Shown: positions 43,345-59,806, numbered from the stretch's first letter. The stretch: DNA of 64,000 nt from Candidatus Lustribacter sp. (GCA_965277805.1 OZ255842.1:2624001-2688000); one strand, 5' to 3'. Notes: generated from the sequence alone by a model not told the origin. A program made the numbers and translations.

Positions 43345-45084
43345 TTACGATGGGGCTAAGCCGATGGCGTAGCCGTTGCGGCCGCGGTGTTTTACTTCGT
43401 AGAGGGCGGCGTCGGCGGCTTTGAGCATGTCGACCGGGTTTTCGGCGTCGATTGGGAAGACGGCGCAGCCGACGCTGATCGTGACGCGAATGTCGTGCGC
43501 GCCGGCGTGCAGCGTTTGATCGCGGATCGCGCAGAGTTTGGCGGCGAGTTCTTCGGCCTGCTTTTGTGTGTCGATCTCCGGCTGCAGCACCACGAACTCA
43601 TCGCCGCCGATGCGGCCGATCGTATCGCTATCGCGCAGCACCGAGCGCAGCCAGGACGAGACCGCGATCAGCACGGCGTCGCCCACGTGATGGCCATAGG
43701 TGTCGTTGATCGTCTTGAAGTGATCGATGTCTACGTAGTGCGCCGCGAACGAACGCCGGTGACGGCGCGCCGAGAGCAGCGTCTGTTCGAGACGGTCTTG
43801 CAGCAGCGCGCGATTGGGCAGGCCGGTCAGCGCGTCGCCGAACGCCAGCGTATCGAGCCGCTTCGTGCGTTCGCCCTGCTGGATCGCCGAACCGATCAGC
43901 ACGCCCAGCGCGCGGATGTAGTCACGATCGATCGTCGAGATATTCATCGGCTCGCCGGTTTGCACGAACGCGACCGCGCCGTAATGGCGGCCCTCGACGG
44001 CGAGCGCAACGCCGGCCAGCGAGGGCGGGTATGCCGACGGGTCGGAAAACACGAACACGTCTTCGGTCTCGAGTTCGGCGCGAATGCGCCCGCGTTCCGC
44101 ATCGTGCGGGATCTTCTCCGGCCGCGTGCCGGCGCTGAACATGATGCTGAAGCTTTCGTCATCGAAACGCGCGACGTAGGCCCACTCCGCACCCAGCTCC
44201 GCCAGGCCCGCTTCGAGGGCCGTTTTCACGCGTTCGTCCTGCGCGACGCTGGCCGCGGCGGCGATGCGGTAGAGCTCGGCGATGCGCGTCGCTTGGCGGG
44301 CCGAATTGCGCGCCGCCCGCCGCCCCTCGGTGACGTCGCGGATCATGCTGCAGAAGCCGCGTACTTCGCCGTCGATGAGCAACGGCACGCGCCGGCCGCT
44401 GATGTCGCGGGCGCTGCCGTTTTTGGTGTGGATCGGGTGCTCGAACTCCGTCGTCTCGCCGCGCAGCATCGCATCGCGCACTGCCTCGACGTCGTAGCCG
44501 GTTTCCGGGCCGAACATTGCCGGCGTTTGCCCGATCATTTCGTCGACCGTGTAGCCGGTCAGGCGCTCGCACGCGCCGTTCACGCGCAGAAACCGGCTCT
44601 CCAGATCGTGCAGCGCAAGCGCGTCGGGGTGGCTTTCGAAGAGCGAACGGAACTGCTGTTCGGAGCGCATGAACTGCCCGAGCACATCTTGGCGTTTGCG
44701 CAGATCGCGGGCAAAGCCGACGACGCCGACGATCCGGTCGTCGAGGCGCGCCGGCACGAGCCGCGTGCTAACGGGAATCGGCTGGCCGTCGGCGCCGACG
44801 AACGTGCTGGTGCCTTCCACGCTCTGGCCGTGCGTCACGCAATGCGCGAACGCCCGCGCAGCTTTCGTGGCCGCCTCGAGCGTCATGTGCTCGGCGAAAT
44901 GGCGCCCGAGCATATCGGCAGCTCGCTCGGTCCCGAGCATGGCTTTTGCCACGGCGTTTCCGGCCATGACCCGGCCCTCGAGATCGTAAATCGCGATAGC
45001 ATCCGACGACCGCCGGAACGTCTCGGGGACTCGTTCGAGCAGCTTCAGATAATCGCGGATGTCCGCCGGAACGTTATCACTCAT
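43345..45084 (-). CDS. PAS-PAS-GAF-like diguanylate cyclase
   Basis: Two PAS repeats, DALTGLPNR, RDSD I-site, GGDEF. Confidence 0.92.
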   Translation of the reverse strand: MSDNVPADIRDYLKLLERVPETFRRSSDAIAIYDLEGRVMAGNAVAKAMLGTERAADMLGRHFAEHMTLEAATKAARAFAHCVTHGQSVEGTSTFVGADGQPIPVSTRLVPARLDDRIVGVVGFARDLRKRQDVLGQFMRSEQQFRSLFESHPDALALHDLESRFLRVNGACERLTGYTVDEMIGQTPAMFGPETGYDVEAVRDAMLRGETTEFEHPIHTKNGSARDISGRRVPLLIDGEVRGFCSMIRDVTEGRRAARNSARQATRIAELYRIAAAASVAQDERVKTALEAGLAELGAEWAYVARFDDESFSIMFSAGTRPEKIPHDAERGRIRAELETEDVFVFSDPSAYPPSLAGVALAVEGRHYGAVAFVQTGEPMNISTIDRDYIRALGVLIGSAIQQGERTKRLDTLAFGDALTGLPNRALLQDRLEQTLLSARRHRRSFAAHYVDIDHFKTINDTYGHHVGDAVLIAVSSWLRSVLRDSDTIGRIGGDEFVVLQPEIDTQKQAEELAAKLCAIRDQTLHAGAHDIRVTISVGCAVFPIDAENPVDMLKAADAALYEVKHRGRNGYAIGLAPS

Positions 45085-51093: not shown

Positions 51094-53019
51094 TTACGTT
51101 TTAAAGCGCTGGTAAAACTGGATTTGGGGACCGTGGAAAGCAGGCGAGAGTCCACCCGGTATCGTCGGCAATCCTGAGACAGAGTATAGACGCCACTGCA
51201 AGCCGTAACCGGTCGTGCCGTTGGGTCGCAACTCGAGGCCCGCAAACACGAGATCTTCGGCGAGCTGCGCGTTGTTCGGGCCCGAGGTATCGAACTGGCC
51301 GTTGAGGCCGAAGCGGCCGACGCCCGCGGCGCCGTACACCTTGGGGCCGAAGTTACGCGCGAAGGTCAGCACGCCGGCGGGATAGTTCACGTTGACGTTG
51401 TCTTGCGGCTGACCGGCGGGAGCTTGACGCCACGTGTTCACCTGACCGAGATCGAGCGTGATGTCGGCGAAGCTCGCGTGGTAGTTGAACCAGCCTTCCC
51501 AATGCTGTTCGTATCCGGTCGTGCCCGGATTGGTCGTCTGCACGAGGAAGTACGGCTCGATGAAACCGGGCTGAAATGCATTGCCCGGATTGAGCGCGCT
51601 GATTTGCGAATACTGCGCGAACGCTAAGCGCACTTCAACGCCGGCAACGATGAACGTCGTGTTGATCTTTCCGCCCTGACGGTTCGGTCCCACTTGCGAA
51701 TTATCGACGAGCTGATAGTCGCCGCGCAAGAACGTGCCGGGCCACGCGGCCGGATACGACCAGACGTTTTCGAGCGTGCCGTAATCGAGAACCGCCGGCG
51801 CGTAGGTGGGCTCGAAGCGCACGCCTTCGACTTGAACGTCGAAGTGCGTGAACCCGTGATGCACCTTCGCGTAGTAGTAGTTGCCGTTGGTGCAACCCGG
51901 CGTCGGATTGACGACGCCGACGGCGCTGTAGCACGAGTAGCCGTAACGCAGTTCGCCGTCGCTCGCGGCCGGCAGATTGAACGTCGCGCCGACGCCGGCG
52001 ACGAACATCTTCTGCCCGAGCACGGTCGATTGTCCGACGCCGTTCGTCACCGTCGGCAGGGTGCCGAAGAGAACGTTACCCGTGTCCGGACCGCTCGTAT
52101 TGAGGCCGGTGAGTTGCATGGAATAGCGCAGGCCGGCGCCGTGATCTTGAATCAGCGAAGCGCTGAGAATACGCGCCGGCGCGTTGTACGGCGCGGGCAG
52201 ATCGGCGCTCGTGACTTCGAGCGTGTTGATGTCGTCCTTCACCCAAAAGTCGGCGCCCGAAAGCGGAAGAATCGTCGGGCCTTCTTTGAGCACATCGTTC
52301 GTCGGCGGACCGTTGCCGATCGATTGCGGCAACTGCGGCGCGAGTTGGAACGGCGTGTTGGTCCACGGCGCCTGACTCAACGCCCACGGCACGCTCTGAT
52401 GCAAATTGAACCAGCCGACGGTGAGTGCTCCGCGGCCCGTGTGATCGGCAATCGAGCCCGAGAGAAAACCGAGCTTCGTCGCGCTGATCGGATCTTGTCC
52501 GTTGTGCGTCGGGAATGCGGGCTTGAGCGTGTACGCGCGGCTGCCGACGTTGGCGTTGATCGAGGGCATGATCGCATCGCCCCAATAGTTGACGACGTTG
52601 CCCGTGCCGGATGCCGAACCGTAGCCGATCGTCGTCGTGACGTCGACGCTCGGCGTAATCGCATAAACCGGCTTCAGCAAGAAGTCCTGACTGATGCCCT
52701 CGCCGGTAACCAGCGGACCGCCCGAAAACAAGTCGTAAGGCGTGCCCGGCGCGGGAACGCCGCCGGCGGTGAAGGCCGGGCCCTCGGCCGGGGTCGTTCC
52801 CGGGCCGGTGAGCTGCTGGTTGGTGCCGGACGTGTACGTCTCGATCTTCAAACTGAATCTCGAGGGGGGCTTCGCCGTCGGGGCGGGACTCGGTACGGAC
52901 TGCGCGACCACGGCGGGGTCCGCGGCGGGCGCATTTTGCGCCCCGGCGGGTCGCTCGAGGCCGGCAATCCCAACGAGAATGGAAGCCGCAACTACGAGCG
53001 GCAAGGCTTGCTGACGCAC
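51094..53019 (-). CDS. Large secreted hypothetical protein, probable outer-membrane beta-barrel
   Basis: GGAGG-GTG 53019, signal peptide, beta-rich C-terminal half ending IQFYQRFKT. Confidence 0.65.
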   Translation of the reverse strand: MRQQALPLVVAASILVGIAGLERPAGAQNAPAADPAVVAQSVPSPAPTAKPPSRFSLKIETYTSGTNQQLTGPGTTPAEGPAFTAGGVPAPGTPYDLFSGGPLVTGEGISQDFLLKPVYAITPSVDVTTTIGYGSASGTGNVVNYWGDAIMPSINANVGSRAYTLKPAFPTHNGQDPISATKLGFLSGSIADHTGRGALTVGWFNLHQSVPWALSQAPWTNTPFQLAPQLPQSIGNGPPTNDVLKEGPTILPLSGADFWVKDDINTLEVTSADLPAPYNAPARILSASLIQDHGAGLRYSMQLTGLNTSGPDTGNVLFGTLPTVTNGVGQSTVLGQKMFVAGVGATFNLPAASDGELRYGYSCYSAVGVVNPTPGCTNGNYYYAKVHHGFTHFDVQVEGVRFEPTYAPAVLDYGTLENVWSYPAAWPGTFLRGDYQLVDNSQVGPNRQGGKINTTFIVAGVEVRLAFAQYSQISALNPGNAFQPGFIEPYFLVQTTNPGTTGYEQHWEGWFNYHASFADITLDLGQVNTWRQAPAGQPQDNVNVNYPAGVLTFARNFGPKVYGAAGVGRFGLNGQFDTSGPNNAQLAEDLVFAGLELRPNGTTGYGLQWRLYSVSGLPTIPGGLSPAFHGPQIQFYQRFKT

Positions 53020-53080
53020 GCCTCCGACTTCTCTTGCGGTCGGCGTTCTCCCACCTCGAAGAGAGGAGGGGGCGGACAGC

Positions 53081-53408
53081 TGGGATGACCGAGGCTCGAA
53101 CTCGGATGCCCTCGCGGGCGGCAGATTTTCGTACCACTTCGGCTTCCGCCGCCCGGCCTTCACGATGGAGTGCCGGTTCGTGGTCTGGACTGTGCCTTGA
53201 CCGTGGGGGTCCGCCTGAGTGGACTCCGATAGGCCGCGCCCGTCCAGTCTCTACACCTTCCGCCGGCAGGTAACCGGCGGCTTGGCTCGGCGTTGTCAGG
53301 GCACTGTGTGCCTCAGAGTTCACCGAATTTGAGCGCATCCCGGCCGGCGTTTCCGTTCGGCCGGCTCACGTGTAAGTCTGCTGTGTCTGCCTATTCCACC
53401 ATCATCCC
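53081..53408 (-). tRNA. tRNA-Leu(UAA), interrupted by intron (exons 53374-53408 and 53081-53129)
   Basis: Spliced sequence GGGATGATGGTGGAATAGGCAGACACAGCAGACTT^AAAATCTGCCGCCCGCGAGGGCATCCGAGTTCGAGCCTCGGTCATCCCA: 7-bp acceptor stem, anticodon stem GCAGA/TCTGC, variable arm, TTCGA loop; CCA not encoded. Confidence 0.93.
53130..53373 (-). ncRNA. Group I self-splicing intron (244 nt, no ORF)
   Basis: Follows exon U34 and ends in G; core elements CTCAAATTCGGTGAA, ACAACGCCGAGCCAAG, GTAGAGACTGGA, GGCACAGTCCA resemble P/Q/R/S of cyanobacterial tRNA-Leu introns. Confidence 0.9.
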
Positions 53409-53503: not shown

Positions 53504-56053
53504 ATGTCCCTCCCCCGTGAACGCCTGACGGCGCTGCTCGCGGATTCGGCGCTGACCAGCGTCGAGCTCGTGATCGCGCCGCCCGGGTACGGCAAAACGA
53601 CGATTCTGCGCGACTACGCCGGAGACGATTCCGGCGCGGTCTTCGTGGCGCTCCCGGAAGCCGCGGATCTCGAAGCCTTCGTGCGTTCCGTGATCGCGGC
53701 TGCAGTGCCGGAGGCTCTGCATTCCGTGGGCGCGGTCTTTGATGGATCGAGCGACGAGAATCTCGATGCGCGGGCCGGCGACTGGCTCGTCTCTCGCCTG
53801 CGAGCGTTTGACGGAACGCTGATTATCGACGATTTCCATCGAACCGCGAGCGACGTTCGCGTAGCACAGGTTCTCGTGAACGCAATCGCCGCAACGCACG
53901 GTCGTATGCGCTGGGTCGTTGCATCGCGCGAGGCACCACGCTTCCCAATGGGGTCGTGGATCGCTCGCGGCTGGATGGGCTTGCCTCTTACCAGCGACGA
54001 TCTCCGGTTCACTCTCGATGAAGCACGAGAGTTGGCCGACATCCTCAACATCGCGATTTCGGAGCACGACCTCGAGGCGATCGTCGAAGACACGCTTGGG
54101 TGGCCGATCGGTGTCCGGCTCGCGCTGAGCCTGGTTGCGCGCAAACGCGCTCTCGGCCAGACGCGCGTGCAAACGCGCGAAGCGCTCTTCGCCCTGCTTG
54201 GTGACGAAGTCTGGGAACCACTCGAACCCGAACTGCGCGAGATCATCTCGTCGGCGGCACTGATGGCCGCGCCGACCATTACAACCCTCACGGCCGCTGG
54301 TTTCTCAGACGCGCGCAACGCCATCCCGCGAATCTTTTCGCGCGTGCCGTTTATCCAACCCATCGACGACGACTCTTTTGCAATACACGATCTCTTCCGC
54401 GAGTTCGTGACGGCCCAGACTCCTCGTCCCGCCGCTGAACGAACGGCCGTCGTGACGCGTATGGGTACAGCCCTTGTGTCCGGCGGAAATCCGGCCGATG
54501 GATTACGGCTGCTCATAGCCGCCGCCGATGTCGCCGGCGTGCGCGACGCACTTGCCGATCACGCCTTCAACCTGGTGGAAACCGGGCAGCGCACGATCGT
54601 GCAAACCGCGATCACGTTTCTCGGCGAGAATGAACTCGACGACGATGGCGTCGTGCTGGCGATTCGAGCGGCATTTGCCAACTCGGACGGGAGCGGAGTC
54701 AACGCGGCGAACCTTTACGTGCGCGCGTTGGCGCACAATCTTCCGTCAGAAATGCGATGCGAAGTAACGCATCGTCTCGCGATGAGCTATCTGTCGCGCA
54801 GTGATGTTCAGGCAGCCCTGAAGCTGCTTTTACCGGCCGCCGAAGACCCGACGTTTTCCGCCGACGAACATCTCGTCATGCGAGCCCTCTGCACGCTCGT
54901 TCGGGCGATGAACGGCGAAACCGCGACCATCCGCGAGTCGATCGATCACGTCGACCAAGCATTGACGTCGGTTGCCGCGGTAACGCAAGCACGGATCCTG
55001 CAACGGCTCGCAGTCGCAGCGTTCTATATCGGCGACTTCGAGGTCTCCGAACGCCTCGCGCATCGCGGCGCACTGCTCGCCGTCGACCTCTCGATGGACA
55101 CGCTCGCGGCGCTCTGCTACGGCACCCTCTACAGCATTGCTTCCAGCATCGACGGCAATACGCGGCGTGCGCGCGAATTCTTACGCGACCAGGCTGCCGC
55201 CGCCGAGCGCGCGGCTAATACCGCGCTGCGGGTGTTTGCGTTGCGCGCCGAGTTTGTGCTCGCCGCAGTGAATGCCGAAACGGAGCGGGCGCGCTCCCTC
55301 GATGCGACCCTCTCCAAACTCGTCGACGCTCGCACGTATCGGGATTCGTTTGCAATGCGAACGAGCCGCGCCCTACTTTACGTCGCAAGCGGTGACCTTA
55401 AAAAGGCGGAAGCGCCCCTGACGGCGCCGGCCTCCGACCTCTCCCCCGCCGAAGCGGCTTTCCGGGACGCCCTGCTCATTCTGCTGATGCTTGCCCGCGG
55501 CGAGCGTGCGGGCGCGGCGCTGGGGCTCGAACGCGCGCTGCTCATGGAAGCGTCGCTCGACAACTACAGCCGCACGCGGATCAGCTGCGCCTATGCCTTT
55601 CGCGCGGTCGCCTTTTGGATGCTCGACCGGCCCGTTCAAGCACGTCGCTCGTTCGGTTTCGACGCCACCGAGCTTCCGCAACACTATCGCATCCTCGTCG
55701 AAGCGCTGCGTACCCTGACCGAGTTCCGCCATCCGCTGCCCGACCGGAGCGCGGCCGCCGCTCTTTGCAACGATCTTGAAGAGGCGGACTTCGGCGCCTA
55801 TGCTGCCCTCGTGCGCCGCCTCGTCGAGCGCGATGCCAACGAAGTGGCACTGAGCTCAACGGAAATCGAGACACTTCGCGTCTTCGACCGGTACGGTGGG
55901 CGCGCGGTCGACGTCGCAAAGGCCTTGGGCAAGTCCCGTTATACGGTCCAGAACCAGATCCAGAGCGCAATCAAGAAGATCGGCTGCTCCGGCCGCGCCG
56001 AGGCGCTGGCGTATGCCCGGCAGCGCGGGTGGCTCGACCCGACCAATAGCTAA
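53504..56053 (+). CDS. MalT-like NTPase/helical-repeat regulator with C-terminal LuxR-type HTH
   Basis: APPGYGKT, LIIDDFH, LRFTLDEA, GWPIG, IHDLFREF; C-terminal VAKALGKSRYTVQNQIQSAIKKIG. Confidence 0.85.
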   Translation: MSLPRERLTALLADSALTSVELVIAPPGYGKTTILRDYAGDDSGAVFVALPEAADLEAFVRSVIAAAVPEALHSVGAVFDGSSDENLDARAGDWLVSRLRAFDGTLIIDDFHRTASDVRVAQVLVNAIAATHGRMRWVVASREAPRFPMGSWIARGWMGLPLTSDDLRFTLDEARELADILNIAISEHDLEAIVEDTLGWPIGVRLALSLVARKRALGQTRVQTREALFALLGDEVWEPLEPELREIISSAALMAAPTITTLTAAGFSDARNAIPRIFSRVPFIQPIDDDSFAIHDLFREFVTAQTPRPAAERTAVVTRMGTALVSGGNPADGLRLLIAAADVAGVRDALADHAFNLVETGQRTIVQTAITFLGENELDDDGVVLAIRAAFANSDGSGVNAANLYVRALAHNLPSEMRCEVTHRLAMSYLSRSDVQAALKLLLPAAEDPTFSADEHLVMRALCTLVRAMNGETATIRESIDHVDQALTSVAAVTQARILQRLAVAAFYIGDFEVSERLAHRGALLAVDLSMDTLAALCYGTLYSIASSIDGNTRRAREFLRDQAAAAERAANTALRVFALRAEFVLAAVNAETERARSLDATLSKLVDARTYRDSFAMRTSRALLYVASGDLKKAEAPLTAPASDLSPAEAAFRDALLILLMLARGERAGAALGLERALLMEASLDNYSRTRISCAYAFRAVAFWMLDRPVQARRSFGFDATELPQHYRILVEALRTLTEFRHPLPDRSAAAALCNDLEEADFGAYAALVRRLVERDANEVALSSTEIETLRVFDRYGGRAVDVAKALGKSRYTVQNQIQSAIKKIGCSGRAEALAYARQRGWLDPTNS

Positions 56054-56062
56054 ATCTAATCA

Positions 56063-56121
56063 TTCCGGATAGCTGACCGCCACGGTACGATCCTTTCAAG
56101 CTTCACTCGAATCTTGGAAGG
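56063..56121 (+). promoter_or_regulatory. Candidate promoter and RBS-sequestering hairpin for the small ORF
   Basis: TTCCGG-N17-TACGAT (56086); hairpin cctttcaag...cttggaagg (56092-56121) contains the GGAAGG RBS. Confidence 0.45.
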
Positions 56122-56129
56122 TTTGTAAA

Positions 56130-56228
56130 ATGCACGAGATCGCCACCGTCATTGCTGCCGCTGCGGCGCACGTTGCTCAACTCCTAGCCTTCATCAGCCC
56201 CACCGACATCATCCCGCCGCCGTTGTAA
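56130..56228 (+). CDS. Unannotated 32-aa peptide MHEIATVIAAAAAHVAQLLAFISPTDIIPPPL
   Basis: ATG 8 nt after GGAAGG, host-like codons, fills the gap between regulator and HD-GYP gene; below ORF-track cutoff. Confidence 0.7.
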   Translation: MHEIATVIAAAAAHVAQLLAFISPTDIIPPPL

Positions 56229-56256
56229 ATCCGGAACCGAAACGACGTATACGCCG

Positions 56257-57210
56257 ATGATAGCACTGTCTGATCACCGGCACGATGCGCGACGTAGCCT
56301 GGCCGAAAAGGTCATCGCCCGACTTCCTGAATCCGTTTTCGGAAACACGGAATGGGTGACGATGACTGCGCGTACGGGTGCAGAGCATCTCCGTGCCGCC
56401 ATCGCATCCAATCGACCTCATCGCATCGCCAACGCCGTCCGGTCCATGGCGCACGCGCCGAGCCTTGACGCCGTTCAGACTCTCGCGGATACCATTTGCG
56501 ATACCGTCGCATCCGACGGCTACTCAGCCCGCAGCGCGGAAACGGTCGCCCAGGTGACCGACGCACGAGCGGTCATAGCCTCGGTGATGGTTGAATTGCG
56601 CGACAGCGCGCCGCAGACGTCACCCGACGCCGTGCTGCTGCGCCAGTGCGTGAATGGCTACGTCCAACTAGCGGCCATGAACGACCCAGCTCTGGCCCAG
56701 CGTCTCGAGGCCGTGGGAACCTTTTCCGAGCGCCTCGCGCGATCGATGAAAGTCCCAGCGGCAACGGTGTTCGACGCCTACGTCGCCGGCAGTCTTCACG
56801 ATATCGGCATGCTGGAAATTCCGCTCGCCGTCCGTCACAAGGCCGTCGGTCTCACAAAACGGGACGAAGAACGCTTCAAGCGCCACGCGCAGGCCGGCGA
56901 ATCGTTCCTGCTCGGAATCCCATCGTTGGCTCGTTTGGCCCCGCTCGTCCGCGCTCATCACGAACGCTACGACGGACTCGGATACCCCGACGGCTTGCGC
57001 GGCGACGAGATTCCACTTGCTTCACGGATTATCGCCGTCGCGGCGGCATTCGTCGACCTGGTGACATCAACGACGCGGTTCGAGGCATTGCTCCCACACG
57101 ACGCATGTCGCGAATTAATCGGGGCGGCCGGGGCCCAATTCGATCCGGATGTCGTCTACGCAACCCTCCAATTACTTCACTATCGACGCCGGACAAACCG
57201 ATCGGCCTAA
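56257..57210 (+). CDS. Degenerate HD-GYP domain protein with unknown helical N-domain
   Basis: LHDIG and HHERYDGLGYP present; first His and late Asp ligands replaced (AQRLEAV, VAAAFVDL). Confidence 0.82.
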   Translation: MIALSDHRHDARRSLAEKVIARLPESVFGNTEWVTMTARTGAEHLRAAIASNRPHRIANAVRSMAHAPSLDAVQTLADTICDTVASDGYSARSAETVAQVTDARAVIASVMVELRDSAPQTSPDAVLLRQCVNGYVQLAAMNDPALAQRLEAVGTFSERLARSMKVPAATVFDAYVAGSLHDIGMLEIPLAVRHKAVGLTKRDEERFKRHAQAGESFLLGIPSLARLAPLVRAHHERYDGLGYPDGLRGDEIPLASRIIAVAAAFVDLVTSTTRFEALLPHDACRELIGAAGAQFDPDVVYATLQLLHYRRRTNRSA

Positions 57211-57218
57211 CATCTCGT

Positions 57219-57899
57219 ATGCCACTTAACGAAACCCTGCGGATCCGCGAAGCCGGCATGCGTGCCGGCTCTGCGGTCATTCGTCAGGCACCCCAAATCC
57301 TCGCACAAGTCCAAGAATGGATCCCGAGCGAAGAACGCGAGCAAGTCGACGTCTTGATTCGCGTCATGGCCGGTTTCGATCGGGATACTGCCGAGCATCT
57401 CGAAGCAGTCGGGACGATGTCGATGCTGCTCGCACATCGTGTGGGGATGGAGCCTGAAACGATCGGGGCGTGCCTCTTAGGCGGACGCGTTCACGATATC
57501 GGGAAGTTGGCAATCTCCCGCAGTACCTTGCTCAAACCGGGCCGGCCGTCAGAAGCGGAATGGCTCGAGCTGAAGATGCATCCGACCTATGGCGGAAGCA
57601 CGCTGACCGGATTACCGCGTCTCAAGCATCTCGCGCCCATTGTGATCGCGCATCACGAACGCGTTGACGGCCAGGGCTACCCGTACGGCCTCACGCAGCC
57701 TGAAATCCCGATCGAGAGCCAGGTTATTGCGATCGCGGATGCGTTCTGCGCGATGACCGTCCCACGTCCGTACTGCTCGACGCGGCTGCCGAAAGAGGCG
57801 CTGCAAGAACTCGAGCGTTGCGCGGGCACGCAGTTCAACGCCGATTTGGTTATTGTTTTTGCCGACATGTTCCGCGATAACGGCCTTGTAGCCGTCTAG
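57219..57899 (+). CDS. Stand-alone HD-GYP phosphodiesterase-like protein
   Basis: DTAEH, VHDIGK, MHP, HHERVDGQGYP, IADAF, RPY. Confidence 0.85.
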   Translation: MPLNETLRIREAGMRAGSAVIRQAPQILAQVQEWIPSEEREQVDVLIRVMAGFDRDTAEHLEAVGTMSMLLAHRVGMEPETIGACLLGGRVHDIGKLAISRSTLLKPGRPSEAEWLELKMHPTYGGSTLTGLPRLKHLAPIVIAHHERVDGQGYPYGLTQPEIPIESQVIAIADAFCAMTVPRPYCSTRLPKEALQELERCAGTQFNADLVIVFADMFRDNGLVAV

Positions 57900-57996: not shown

Positions 57997-58932
57997 TCAT
58001 GCGCTCGTTGCGCGCACGCCGTATGCCTCCGACGCGAGGTAGCCGGCGAGTAGGTCGTCGACGCTGACGAGGACGTCCGGGACGGTGAGGATACGGCAAG
58101 CTTCATCGATGATCGCGATGCCGGCGGGTAAAATGTCGGCGCGTTGCGGGCGGATGAACGGGAGCGCCTTACGTTCGTCGAGATCGCGCGCGAGGAGTTC
58201 GTCAAGCAGATCGGCACGTTGCGCGGGGTTCATCGTGACGCCGTCGCGCAGCGGCGCCTTCGCGACCATCGCGGCGGCGGTGAAAGCCGAACCGCCGACG
58301 ACGATCAGTCGCGTCGGGCGCGGCGCCGACGCGAACGGCTCGAGGATCGCCGCTGCATCGGCGCGCGATGCGGCGAGTACCTCCGCGCGTTCTTCCGGTG
58401 AGAGCGCTCGCGAGCCGAGCAACAGCGGATGCCGTTCCGCCAATCGCACTGCGCCGACCTCGACCGAGCATGTATACGCGACGGATCCGCGCACTTGCGC
58501 CGTCGCCGGCACATCGATCGCGAGTTCGGTGCTGCCGCCGCCGACATCCAAAACCGCAACGGCTTCATCGCCGCCCCCCGCTTGCGTTGCGCCGAGAAAC
58601 GAATACGTTGCTTCTTCATCACCCGAAAGAATGTGCGGCTCGACGCCGGTCAGCGCCTTGACCGCTGCGGTGAAGTCGGCGCCGTCGGCGGCGCGGCGCA
58701 TCGCGCTAGTGGCGATGCACGCGATCGCTGCTTCGTGCTCGCGCACGCCGTTCATATAATCGGCTATTGCCGCGAGCGTTCGTTCGCGCGCGTCGGGATC
58801 GAGCCGCCCGGTATGCTGCAGTCCCGTTCCAAGTCGCGTTCCGCGCGACTCCACCGCCAGCGTCTCTGCCTCGTTGAGTACGAGCAGCCGGGTGGAGTTG
58901 GTGCCGATCGAAATCAGCGCTTTCGGACGAAT
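57997..58932 (-). CDS. ppx: Ppx/GppA-family phosphatase (single ASKHA module); start uncertain
   Basis: SIGTNSTRLL, ATSAMR, GDEEA, DVGGGSTE, RADILPAG. Confidence 0.85.
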   Translation of the reverse strand: MRPKALISIGTNSTRLLVLNEAETLAVESRGTRLGTGLQHTGRLDPDARERTLAAIADYMNGVREHEAAIACIATSAMRRAADGADFTAAVKALTGVEPHILSGDEEATYSFLGATQAGGGDEAVAVLDVGGGSTELAIDVPATAQVRGSVAYTCSVEVGAVRLAERHPLLLGSRALSPEERAEVLAASRADAAAILEPFASAPRPTRLIVVGGSAFTAAAMVAKAPLRDGVTMNPAQRADLLDELLARDLDERKALPFIRPQRADILPAGIAIIDEACRILTVPDVLVSVDDLLAGYLASEAYGVRATSA

Positions 58933-58933
58933 C

Positions 58934-59806
58934 CTAGTAGCGCTTTGCTTCGGTCGCCTCGCGGGTCTTGCCGATCGTTTCGAGCGAACGGTCGTGAGCG
59001 CGGAGTGCGATCCCAACATACAGAGTATCGATGATGGTCAACTGCGCGATGCGGCTCGAGCTCGCGCTGCTGCGAAACGCGGTCTGCTTGGCGGCCGTGT
59101 ACAGGCGGATATCCGAGACCTTGGTGATCGGCGAGGTCGAGCGGTGCGTGATGCAGATCGTCGTCGCGCCGTTCCCCTTCGCGCGTTCGAGCGCGTCGGT
59201 GACGTCGCGGCTCGCACCGGTGTGCGAGATGCCGAGCGCAACGTCGCCTTTGCCGAGCAGCGCTGATGACATCGCCATCATGTCGCCGTCGGAGAGTGCG
59301 ACCGCCACCATGCCGAGTTTGAGGAACTTGTGATACGCATCGATCGCGAGCGGGTCGCTGCCGCCGACGCCGTAGATGTCGACGCGACGCGCCGTCGCCA
59401 ACGCGGCGACCGCGCGTTCGAGATCGGAATCGTCGAGCACCTCGATCGTGTCGCGCAACGCTTGCGCGTTTGCTTGAAACACTTTGTTCTTGATCGTGGT
59501 CAGATCGTCGCCCGATTCGACTTCCGCATAGATGTCCGACGTCGGCTCGACCAAATCACGGGCGAGCACGATCTTAAATTCTTGATAACCTTTGTACCCG
59601 ATCTTCTGGCACAGCCGCACAACGGTCGATTCGCTCGTGTTGGTACGCTCCGCCAGCTCGGTTACCGTGAGGTAAATCAATTCGTCAGGGTGCTTTAGGA
59701 TGAAATCGGCTACCCTCTGCTCTGCGGCACGAAGGGTTGCGTAGGCACCTTCGATTCTAACAAAGCACCCGGGGACTTTAACGGCGTCAACGCGCGAGGT
59801 AGTCAT
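58934..59806 (-). CDS. RpiR/MurR-family transcriptional regulator
   Basis: SESTVVRLCQKIGYKGYQEFK HTH; SIS domain GVGGS, ISHTG. Confidence 0.93.
   Translation of the reverse strand: MTTSRVDAVKVPGCFVRIEGAYATLRAAEQRVADFILKHPDELIYLTVTELAERTNTSESTVVRLCQKIGYKGYQEFKIVLARDLVEPTSDIYAEVESGDDLTTIKNKVFQANAQALRDTIEVLDDSDLERAVAALATARRVDIYGVGGSDPLAIDAYHKFLKLGMVAVALSDGDMMAMSSALLGKGDVALGISHTGASRDVTDALERAKGNGATTICITHRSTSPITKVSDIRLYTAAKQTAFRSSASSSRIAQLTIIDTLYVGIALRAHDRSLETIGKTREATEAKRY

Follow-up and report, generated by a model that had tools for sequence, protein, structure and literature searches.

A 64,000-nucleotide (nt) stretch of DNA from Candidatus Lustribacter sp. (GCA_965277805.1 OZ255842.1:2624001-2688000), referred to here as the window, was analysed with a focus on a compact module at positions 53504 to 57899. 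The module consists of a gene for a MalT-type regulator, a small open reading frame (ORF) and a pair of HD-GYP genes. A first-pass annotation, made from the DNA alone, had proposed that the small ORF encodes a peptide signal sensed by the regulator, with output through cyclic-dinucleotide turnover; its coordinates for the regulator, for the small ORF with its own ribosome-binding site (RBS), and for the HD-GYP pair all proved correct. The parts of the module are:

53504-56053, plus strand: gene of the MalT-type STAND regulator, 849 residues, with a NOD and its arm, a TPR-like sensor, and a LuxR/GerE helix-turn-helix (HTH) domain
56047-56062: imperfect inverted repeat (16 bp) that runs over the stop codon of the regulator, a candidate operator for a LuxR-type HTH
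56086-56091, plus strand: -10-like hexamer TACGAT, with the repeat centre 31.5 nt upstream
56091-56122, plus strand: hairpin or palindrome, in which the 5′ arm (56091-56099) pairs with 56114-56122 (GGAAGG included)
56130-56228, plus strand: small ORF, a candidate propeptide gene, 32 residues, ATG start and TAA stop
56257-57210, plus strand: HD-GYP gene 1, 317 residues, Pfam HD_5
57219-57899, plus strand: HD-GYP gene 2, 226 residues, Pfam HD_5

The small ORF starts exactly 76 nt past the regulator stop codon on the same strand, with a GGAAGG ribosome site at 56116-56121, 8 nt ahead of its ATG, and HD-GYP gene 1 begins 28 nt past its stop. The ATG at 57219 is most likely the start of HD-GYP gene 2; an alternative, longer ORF from 56646 overlaps HD-GYP gene 1 in a different frame. 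Certain gene callers evidently do predict the small ORF, as the exact window peptide was found in public protein collections, where relatives of it bear the label 'hypothetical protein'.

The regulator is a member of the MalT/LAL class of STAND proteins by all structural features examined. In profile searches, its NOD matched MalT (8bob; E = 9e-40, residues 2-385), the sensor matched that of PH0952, a STAND protein with TPRs (6mfv; E = 9e-10), and the HTH matched GerE/LuxR domains (E = 4e-9); the profile also matched the TPR domains of kinesin light chain (KLC) and LGN. The TPR-like helical sensor spans residues 386-775 approximately, and the C-terminal LuxR/GerE HTH spans approximately residues 781-845. 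The Pfam family TPR_5 scored 17.2 bits, under its cut-off of 24.2. The AlphaFold model of the protein has a mean pLDDT of 86.5, and its top Foldseek matches were 6mfv (PH0952 STAND-TPR), 8bob (MalT), and Avs3, a STAND protein with a TPR sensor. The profile and Foldseek matches to the MalT NOD, the TPR sensor and the LuxR HTH bear out the earlier description of this gene as a MalT/LuxR regulator. The P-loop residues G28, G30, and K31 are unchanged across 27 regulator sequences, and the mean identity within the regulators is 54% in the sensor, 68% in the NOD, and 85% in the HTH, the sensor being the fastest-evolving part. Orthology to MalT itself was considered and rejected: NCBIfam NF003420 gave 101.6 bits, compared with a cut-off of 537, and only residues 3-397 matched.

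Both downstream proteins matched Pfam HD_5 (E = 5e-33 for gene 1 and 2e-22 for gene 2) and carry the full HD and HHExxDGxGYP motifs, which agrees with their first-pass naming as HD-GYP genes. Judged by these motifs, the pair would be canonical cyclic-dinucleotide (cyclic di-GMP, c-di-GMP) phosphodiesterases. The gene 1 product additionally has an N-terminal domain of about 130 residues of unknown family.

The small ORF is very probably a genuine member of a conserved module. The first-pass annotation had suggested scanning downstream of regulator homologues for comparable ORFs, and the scan was positive. From a starting set of 109 loci, taken from genomes and public contigs, 78 were kept that had a regulator of at least 700 residues and at least 350 nt after it, with duplicates removed. 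An equivalent small ORF was found at the same place in 34 of the 41 non-redundant loci with a downstream HD-family gene, but in only 2 of the 37 loci without one (L038 and L049), in a list that was curated post hoc and in which 3 of the 41 HD-family loci were assigned via Pfam matches (two loci) or tblastn (the third). The L038 contig stops 399 nt past the regulator. At L049 (5676-7000), a regulator of a small-ORF clade is followed by a 20-residue small ORF, and then by genes for a 178-residue protein (no Pfam family) and an OmpR-type response regulator; with these other genes downstream, the cassette can apparently drive outputs besides HD-GYP.

A blind criterion, requiring a Shine-Dalgarno (SD) match of at least 4 nt, 15-70 codons, and a hydrophobic window, picked out 25 of 38 forward strands; on reverse strands it succeeded in 4 of 38, and in shuffles in 87 of 1520. 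Within the set scored as lacking HD-GYP, it picked out 5 of 40, each of which is also in the curated list. SD-preceded ORFs of 15-70 codons arose in 486 of 1520 dinucleotide-preserving shuffles of the gaps, and a 32-codon ORF in such a gap is not by itself beyond chance; it is the conservation across loci that decides, and that makes the small ORF more than a chance frame.

The small ORF co-occurs with particular regulator clades and with HD-GYP genes. In a FastTree phylogeny of 77 regulators, its carriers fall into clades of 23, 9, and 4 rows (support 100), and a separate clade of 32 rows (support 98) lacks it. This pattern is best read as long retention rather than as independent events, since kin share labels. 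The frame, start, RBS, stop position, and tail of the small ORF are kept across regulators that are just 24-30% identical. Seven HD-GYP loci lack the small ORF; in six of these, the regulator match ends before the HTH and the HD gene abuts the regulator, and the remaining one, L011, is doubtful. A STAND sister clade (L021, L024, L026, L093, L102, L109, and perhaps G000:C1:2983512-2986480) shows a match that ends before the LuxR HTH, and its HD-GYP gene follows the STAND gene directly, without a small ORF. This arrangement suggests that the sister clade may be linked to HD-GYP by a protein-protein rather than a transcriptional route.

Within the window's genus, four orthologous loci have an intact regulator (58-67% identical), and in each of them a small ORF lies between the regulator stop and HD-GYP gene 1. 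A fifth same-genus locus is pseudogenised, and its small ORF remnant is frameshifted. Joint decay of the module is visible in one same-genus genome at L007/L094 (G003), with numerous stops in the regulator, a frameshift in the small ORF, and HD-GYP gene 1 in fragments. A small ORF of the window type is present on all seven metagenome contigs with DNA beyond the regulator. When 1.84 billion representatives were searched with a profile of this type, 17 clusters (50% identity) were retrieved, which have 31-35 residues except for one of 75 residues that runs on into other sequence. Several of the peptides recur as exact copies in public collections, one on 65 contigs and another on 27, all of them labelled 'hypothetical protein'.

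A paralogous module is present in the same genome (G000:C1:1920263-1924547). It comprises a regulator that is 30% identical to that of the window, a 27-codon small ORF with a GTG start, a hydrophobic N-part and an L-P-P-L end, and two HD-GYP genes. Orthologues of this paralogue (L006/L034 and L035-L037) have small ORFs of 15-30 codons. A whole-genome scan with the tail motif for further small ORFs matched only the window's own; the paralogue was missed because its tail differs.

The small ORF is under purifying selection, and is kept in place, in frame, and in its tail. Over three close pairs from other genera and from a second family, the pooled proportions of synonymous (pS) and non-synonymous (pN) differences were 0.305 and 0.079, giving a pN/pS of 0.26 in frame, compared with 1.48 and 2.55 in the other frames. 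The pair L022/L025 alone showed a pN of 0.05 against a pS of 0.36 over 51 codons. For four pairs within the window's genus, pN/pS was 0.54 in frame and 0.72 and 2.64 in the other frames. The small peptide evolves fast in this genus.

Product statistics were compiled for 42 non-redundant small ORFs of 15-66 residues. The first-pass description of a hydrophobic, leader-like N-part followed by a polar, proline-containing tail captured the anatomy correctly: at least one proline lies within the last eight residues in 41 of the 42, and a proline pair in 34 of the 42; 19 of the 42 end in glycine. Three forms were distinguished. The first, of 20-29 residues, is very hydrophobic, ends in a tail of the pattern hydrophobic-P-P-x-x-[IVM]-G, and is found in most genera of the family. 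The second, of 45-66 residues, has a full lipoprotein signal peptide and a conserved C-tail, and occurs in the second family and a few other loci. The third is that of the window's genus, with 32-34 residues; its N-part is conserved, helix-like, and contains His, and its tail follows the pattern P-x-[D/E/N]-x-x-P-P, where a fixed P...PP frame surrounds about four variable residues that differ by cluster. The window peptide itself has a hydrophobic, His-containing N-part and a P-x-D-x-x-P-P-P tail.

A strict lipobox was found in 9 of the 42 small ORFs, including all four loci of the second family, whose lipoprotein signal peptide fits an exported propeptide. At the other extreme, the 15-21-residue forms (L002 and L006 types) have hydrophobic runs of about 12-14 residues or none, not enough to cross a membrane. 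What stays the same across the family is the C-tail, and the N-part ranges from nothing, via a short hydrophobic run, to a full lipoprotein signal. In two loci the tail unit is repeated in tandem, as three units of eight residues in L043 (4669-4776, approximate) and two of nine residues in L010 (3703-3903, approximate). Tandem repeats of this sort are also a feature of duplicated pheromone propeptides (PMC11343458). In L046, L055, L070, and others (21-24 residues), a cysteine in a lipobox-like context lies 7-9 residues from the C-terminus; if processed like lipoproteins, these forms would yield a lipidated peptide of fewer than 10 residues. L070, whose contig bears the title Candidatus Acidoferrum sp., and L055, titled Eremiobacteraeota, have nearly identical modules; the Acidobacteriota label of L070 may stem from an error in binning or naming, and not from a transfer. 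A lipobox-type small ORF was also seen at L027 (G015), but was excluded from all counts and claims.

The DNA between the regulator and the small ORF follows a fixed layout. At most loci, an inverted repeat of 16-22 bp lies directly after or across the regulator stop, with its centre 31-32 nt upstream of a TAnnAT hexamer and 70-76 nt upstream of the small ORF. The sequence of the repeat differs among clades, and the geometry is fixed; the repeat block is conserved in an alignment of 10 same-genus loci, and a hand count gave a repeat-to-hexamer spacing of 31 nt again in the paralogous module. If TACGAT is the -10 element, the repeat in the window is centred near -43.5. Lux boxes are centred at -42.5 from the transcription start, and the position of the repeat fits a LuxR-type class II activator, making it a candidate operator on geometry only. 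The first-pass annotation had also assigned the small ORF a candidate promoter. The promoter-like match returned by a simple scan (56102-56131) overlaps the RBS and the start codon, and is probably spurious; a conserved candidate sits elsewhere, and consists of the repeat at 56047-56062 and TACGAT at 56086-56091.

Immediately downstream of the hexamer, the hairpin at 56091-56122 has a consensus of nine pairs in 10 loci, three of them with compensatory changes, and is present in both the minimum-free-energy and the centroid folds. On inspection by eye, L008, L020, L023, and the paralogue show similar pairings. Its 5′ arm abuts the hexamer, and a transcript from this candidate promoter may therefore lack that arm. 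It may be that the hairpin forms solely in RNA that reads through from the regulator gene, where it would silence basal translation; or 56091-56122 may instead be a DNA palindrome for a protein. A search of Rfam with 55950-56400 found no family, the single snoRNA match (E = 0.6) being noise, and a simple scan found no plus-strand terminator.

Between the small-ORF stop and the HD-GYP start, the median distance is 34 nt (range 3-121). An SD match of at least 4 nt precedes the HD-GYP start in 11 of 33 loci, compared with 29 of 33 for the small ORF, a contrast that marks the small ORF as the well-initiated first cistron. No Shine-Dalgarno motif lies ahead of the ATG of HD-GYP gene 1 in the window, and translation of HD-GYP is probably coupled to that of the small ORF. 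Two soil metatranscriptome runs contained contigs 100% identical to 56527-56668 and 56762-56950, both inside HD-GYP gene 1. These contigs are a weak hint of operon transcription in nature, with DNA carry-over possible, and are silent on the small ORF.

The reading that we tentatively prefer, as a real though somewhat less than even prospect, is that the module produces a peptide signal that undergoes export and processing, is detected by the neighbouring regulator, switches on its own operon, and brings c-di-GMP down. The small ORF would be translated, as the leading cistron of an operon that also includes the two HD-GYP genes. Its product would be a propeptide, with the hydrophobic N-part serving as an export and processing handle (a lipoprotein signal peptide in some relatives), and the C-terminal P-x-x-x-x-P-P tail would be freed outside the cytoplasm. 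The tail would then be re-imported, probably via an Opp-type permease, and would bind the TPR-like sensor of the adjacent MalT-type STAND regulator. ATP-dependent multimerisation is established for MalT; the ligand-bound regulator would multimerise with ATP in the same way, bind the repeat near -43.5, and activate the operon. The outcome would be positive feedback on the peptide, together with induction of HD-GYP enzymes that would break down c-di-GMP or a similar cyclic dinucleotide. The layout of operator and promoter appears to be that of an autoinduction loop, and the genome has uptake capacity, with 17 matches to SBP_bac_5, the family of Opp-type binding proteins. Also in favour of the proposal are the constancy of the C-tail beside so variable an N-part, the tail units repeated in tandem, the forms too short for a membrane span, and the fast evolution of the sensor relative to the rest of the regulator. 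We infer translation, export, processing, uptake, binding, activation, and the HD-GYP substrate. Co-folding of regulator residues 330-780 with the peptide, run without controls, scored 0.03 against a mark of 0.32, a result that speaks neither for nor against binding.

Several observations weigh against this proposal. No RNA-library contig covered the small ORF or the regulator, although contigs of this kind cannot show absence. The in-frame constraint within the window's genus is only moderate (0.54, compared with 0.72 in one of the other frames). The N-part of the genus is itself conserved, with two histidines and a Q-x-x-H-L-[LI]-A core, which is unexpected for a disposable leader. A lysine or arginine is found among the first six residues in just 13 of the 42 small ORFs, and the window peptide has neither a positively charged n-region nor a lipobox, so that no known export route is evident for it. 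Exporter, peptidase, and permease genes were not found in the neighbourhood of the module. The host belongs to the Eremiobacterota (Vulcanimicrobiota), a diderm phylum whose only cultured member is described in PMC9758169 as having a Gram-negative envelope with an outer membrane; with such an envelope, the peptide would need to cross the outer membrane twice. Finally, the proline pair near the stop and the SD-less HD-GYP start fit a translational role in cis equally well.

A different possibility is that the product stays with the producer cell as a small membrane protein or mini-lipoprotein, and acts in trans as a partner or feedback regulator without any diffusible signal. We regard this as unlikely, but deserving of serious weight. 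MgrB is an example of a small regulatory membrane protein, and a membrane partner of this kind might act on the HD-GYP enzymes, by tethering or modulating them, or might keep the regulator sequestered at the membrane. The idea is consistent with the hydrophobic N-part of nearly all forms, with the conserved N-part of the genus, whose two histidines lie about three helical turns apart, with the lipid anchor that lipobox forms would carry, and with co-transcription and probable translational coupling with the HD-GYP genes. It accounts poorly for the 15-21-residue forms, whose hydrophobic runs are too short for a transmembrane helix, and for the family-wide conservation of the C-tail rather than of the hydrophobic part. 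The tandem tail repeats in L043 and L010 are hard to explain for a structural partner, and inspection of the HD-GYP and regulator sequences revealed no membrane segment.

The small ORF could instead be a cis-acting leader, in which translation, slowed at the proline pair and reliant on elongation factor P or on the supply of prolyl-tRNA, delivers ribosomes to the HD-GYP start through coupling or re-initiation, or else unfolds the region around that start, and the peptide has no role in trans. Leader ORFs that promote downstream translation are known from accounts in PMC8092293 and PMC4833913. The frequency of prolines near the stop, the short gap, the SD contrast between the two starts, and the conserved hairpin that covers the small ORF's own RBS would all suit such a leader, yet 8 of the 42 small ORFs have no proline pair. 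The gap is too small for a terminator or antiterminator, and both the plus-strand terminator scan and the Rfam search were negative. A purely cis role also leaves unexplained the purifying selection on the whole peptide, seen most clearly in L022/L025, as well as the conserved lipoboxes and the tail repeats, and we give this explanation a similarly low probability. Its variant, a force-sensing arrest peptide like SecM, MifM, and VemP, is unlikely: 20 of the 42 products have at most 27 residues and 36 of the 42 at most 44, and a nascent chain of 20-34 residues is still inside the ribosome tunnel when the prolines are read. The products being mostly shorter than the tunnel, an arrest that is governed by translocon pulling cannot apply to most forms. 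The readings are not mutually exclusive, as the first cistron could encode a signal and also deliver ribosomes to the HD-GYP gene.

A precursor of a ribosomally synthesized and post-translationally modified peptide (RiPP), with the HD-domain proteins as tailoring enzymes, is very improbable. A short, precursor-like gene with a variable core, beside metal-dependent HD-superfamily proteins and a pathway-type LuxR regulator, does resemble such a locus, but the HD-GYP signature that marks cyclic-dinucleotide phosphodiesterases is complete in both HD proteins, the neighbourhood contains no known RiPP enzyme, protease, or transporter, and we know of no RiPP class that uses HD-GYP proteins. That the small ORF is a chance frame in a GC-rich spacer, conserved through promoter or RNA signals only, is scarcely credible: the shuffled gaps do show how readily SD-preceded ORFs arise, but the features kept across highly diverged regulators, the frame-specific pN/pS contrast, and the strand-specific enrichment all argue against it.

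The proposed peptide circuit was compared with known systems, beginning with the RRNPP quorum systems to which the first-pass annotation had likened it. By the RRNPP criteria given in PMC10075063, two parts of the analogy hold, namely the small propeptide (32 residues, and 15-66 in the 42 relatives) and its adjacency to the receptor gene (76 nt), and two do not, namely receptor size, with 849 residues compared with the 250-500 given there for RRNPP receptors, and receptor family. On two further criteria, secretion of the propeptide and peptide-binding TPRs in the receptor, the signs are mixed: a strict lipobox is seen in 9 of the 42 small ORFs but not in the window peptide, and the sensor resembles TPR proteins in profile and fold, with TPR_5 under its cut-off. 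No RRNPP chain was found among the PDB sequence matches of the regulator, nor among the 52 Foldseek matches (E <= 0.001) listed. The RRNPP systems of Bacillota (Rap/Phr, NprR/NprX, PlcR/PapR, PrgX, Rgg/SHP, and AimR/AimP) likewise place a propeptide gene beside a cytoplasmic helical-repeat (TPR-type) receptor that doubles as a transcription factor, and the likeness extends to a presumed C-terminal active part, to the coexistence of short hydrophobic and signal-peptide forms, and to tandem duplication of the tail. However, RRNPP receptors carry an N-terminal Cro/C1-type HTH, whereas the window regulator is a STAND NTPase with a C-terminal LuxR-type HTH, and the setting here is a diderm phylum with an HD-GYP output rather than Bacillota. 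By analogy, the cassette would work like an RRNPP system without being a member of that family.

With MalT and the LAL regulators, the window protein shares the order of P-loop NOD, arm, helical-repeat sensor, and LuxR HTH, and ligand-triggered, ATP-dependent multimerisation and class II-like activation would be expected here too; the ligand of MalT, in contrast, is maltotriose, and the window regulator is not its orthologue. LuxR/lux-box autoinduction offers a second parallel, with an inverted repeat of 16-20 bp near -43 from the inferred start, the signal gene first in the activated operon, and positive feedback, but those circuits use an acyl-homoserine lactone, and here the signal would be a ribosomal peptide and the receptor lacks an autoinducer-binding domain. 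The diffusible signal factor (DSF)/RpfC/RpfG system of Xanthomonas similarly couples a cell-cell signal to an HD-GYP phosphodiesterase and c-di-GMP; there, the signal is a fatty acid and phosphorylation activates the HD-GYP protein, unlike the peptide and transcriptional induction proposed here. Enterococcal sex pheromones are also tied to lipoprotein-type precursors, but are cut from the signal peptide, whereas the lipobox forms described here conserve the C-tail after the cysteine.

The first-pass annotation knew of no MalT-type regulator with a cognate peptide, and the literature search agreed, finding no LAL/MalT-type regulator with a cognate encoded peptide in literature that did not extend to the supplementary tables of the RRNPP papers (PMC10075063 and PMC9765709). 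Nor did that search bring up a cassette of this kind in Eremiobacterota, or any description of a small ORF upstream of HD-GYP genes. In a preprint (10.1101/2024.03.06.583649), one passage speculates that mycobacterial TPR-LuxR proteins might bind peptides, with none named. It is conceivable, although on balance we would stop short of calling it probable, that the module represents an undescribed class of peptide signalling, the first with a STAND (MalT/NLR-like) cytoplasmic receptor and the first in the diderm, largely uncultured Eremiobacterota, with pherotype-like variation in the P-x-x-x-x-P-P tail and wiring to c-di-GMP breakdown via induced HD-GYP enzymes. Peptide pheromones with cytoplasmic receptors are regarded in PMC10075063 as a speciality of Bacillota, and detection tools, which exclude receptors of more than 500 residues, would not see a cassette of this kind. 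If the proposal is true, genetically encoded peptide signalling reaches into a diderm phylum with high abundance in peat and oligotrophic soils, the LAL/MalT-type regulators, mostly without a known ligand, gain a class of ligand that can be read from the genome, and quorum-type signalling is tied to c-di-GMP turnover by a compact cassette of three gene types. Under the rival readings too, the small ORFs constitute a conserved small-protein family with a defined regulatory context.

The module is flanked by genes on the minus strand. A 689-residue ORF without a Pfam match (51094-53163) is divergent from the regulator gene, and upstream of it lies a gene for a PAS-PAS-GAF-GGDEF diguanylate cyclase (43345-45084). 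On the other side, a Ppx/GppA phosphatase gene (57997-59019) is convergent with HD-GYP gene 2.

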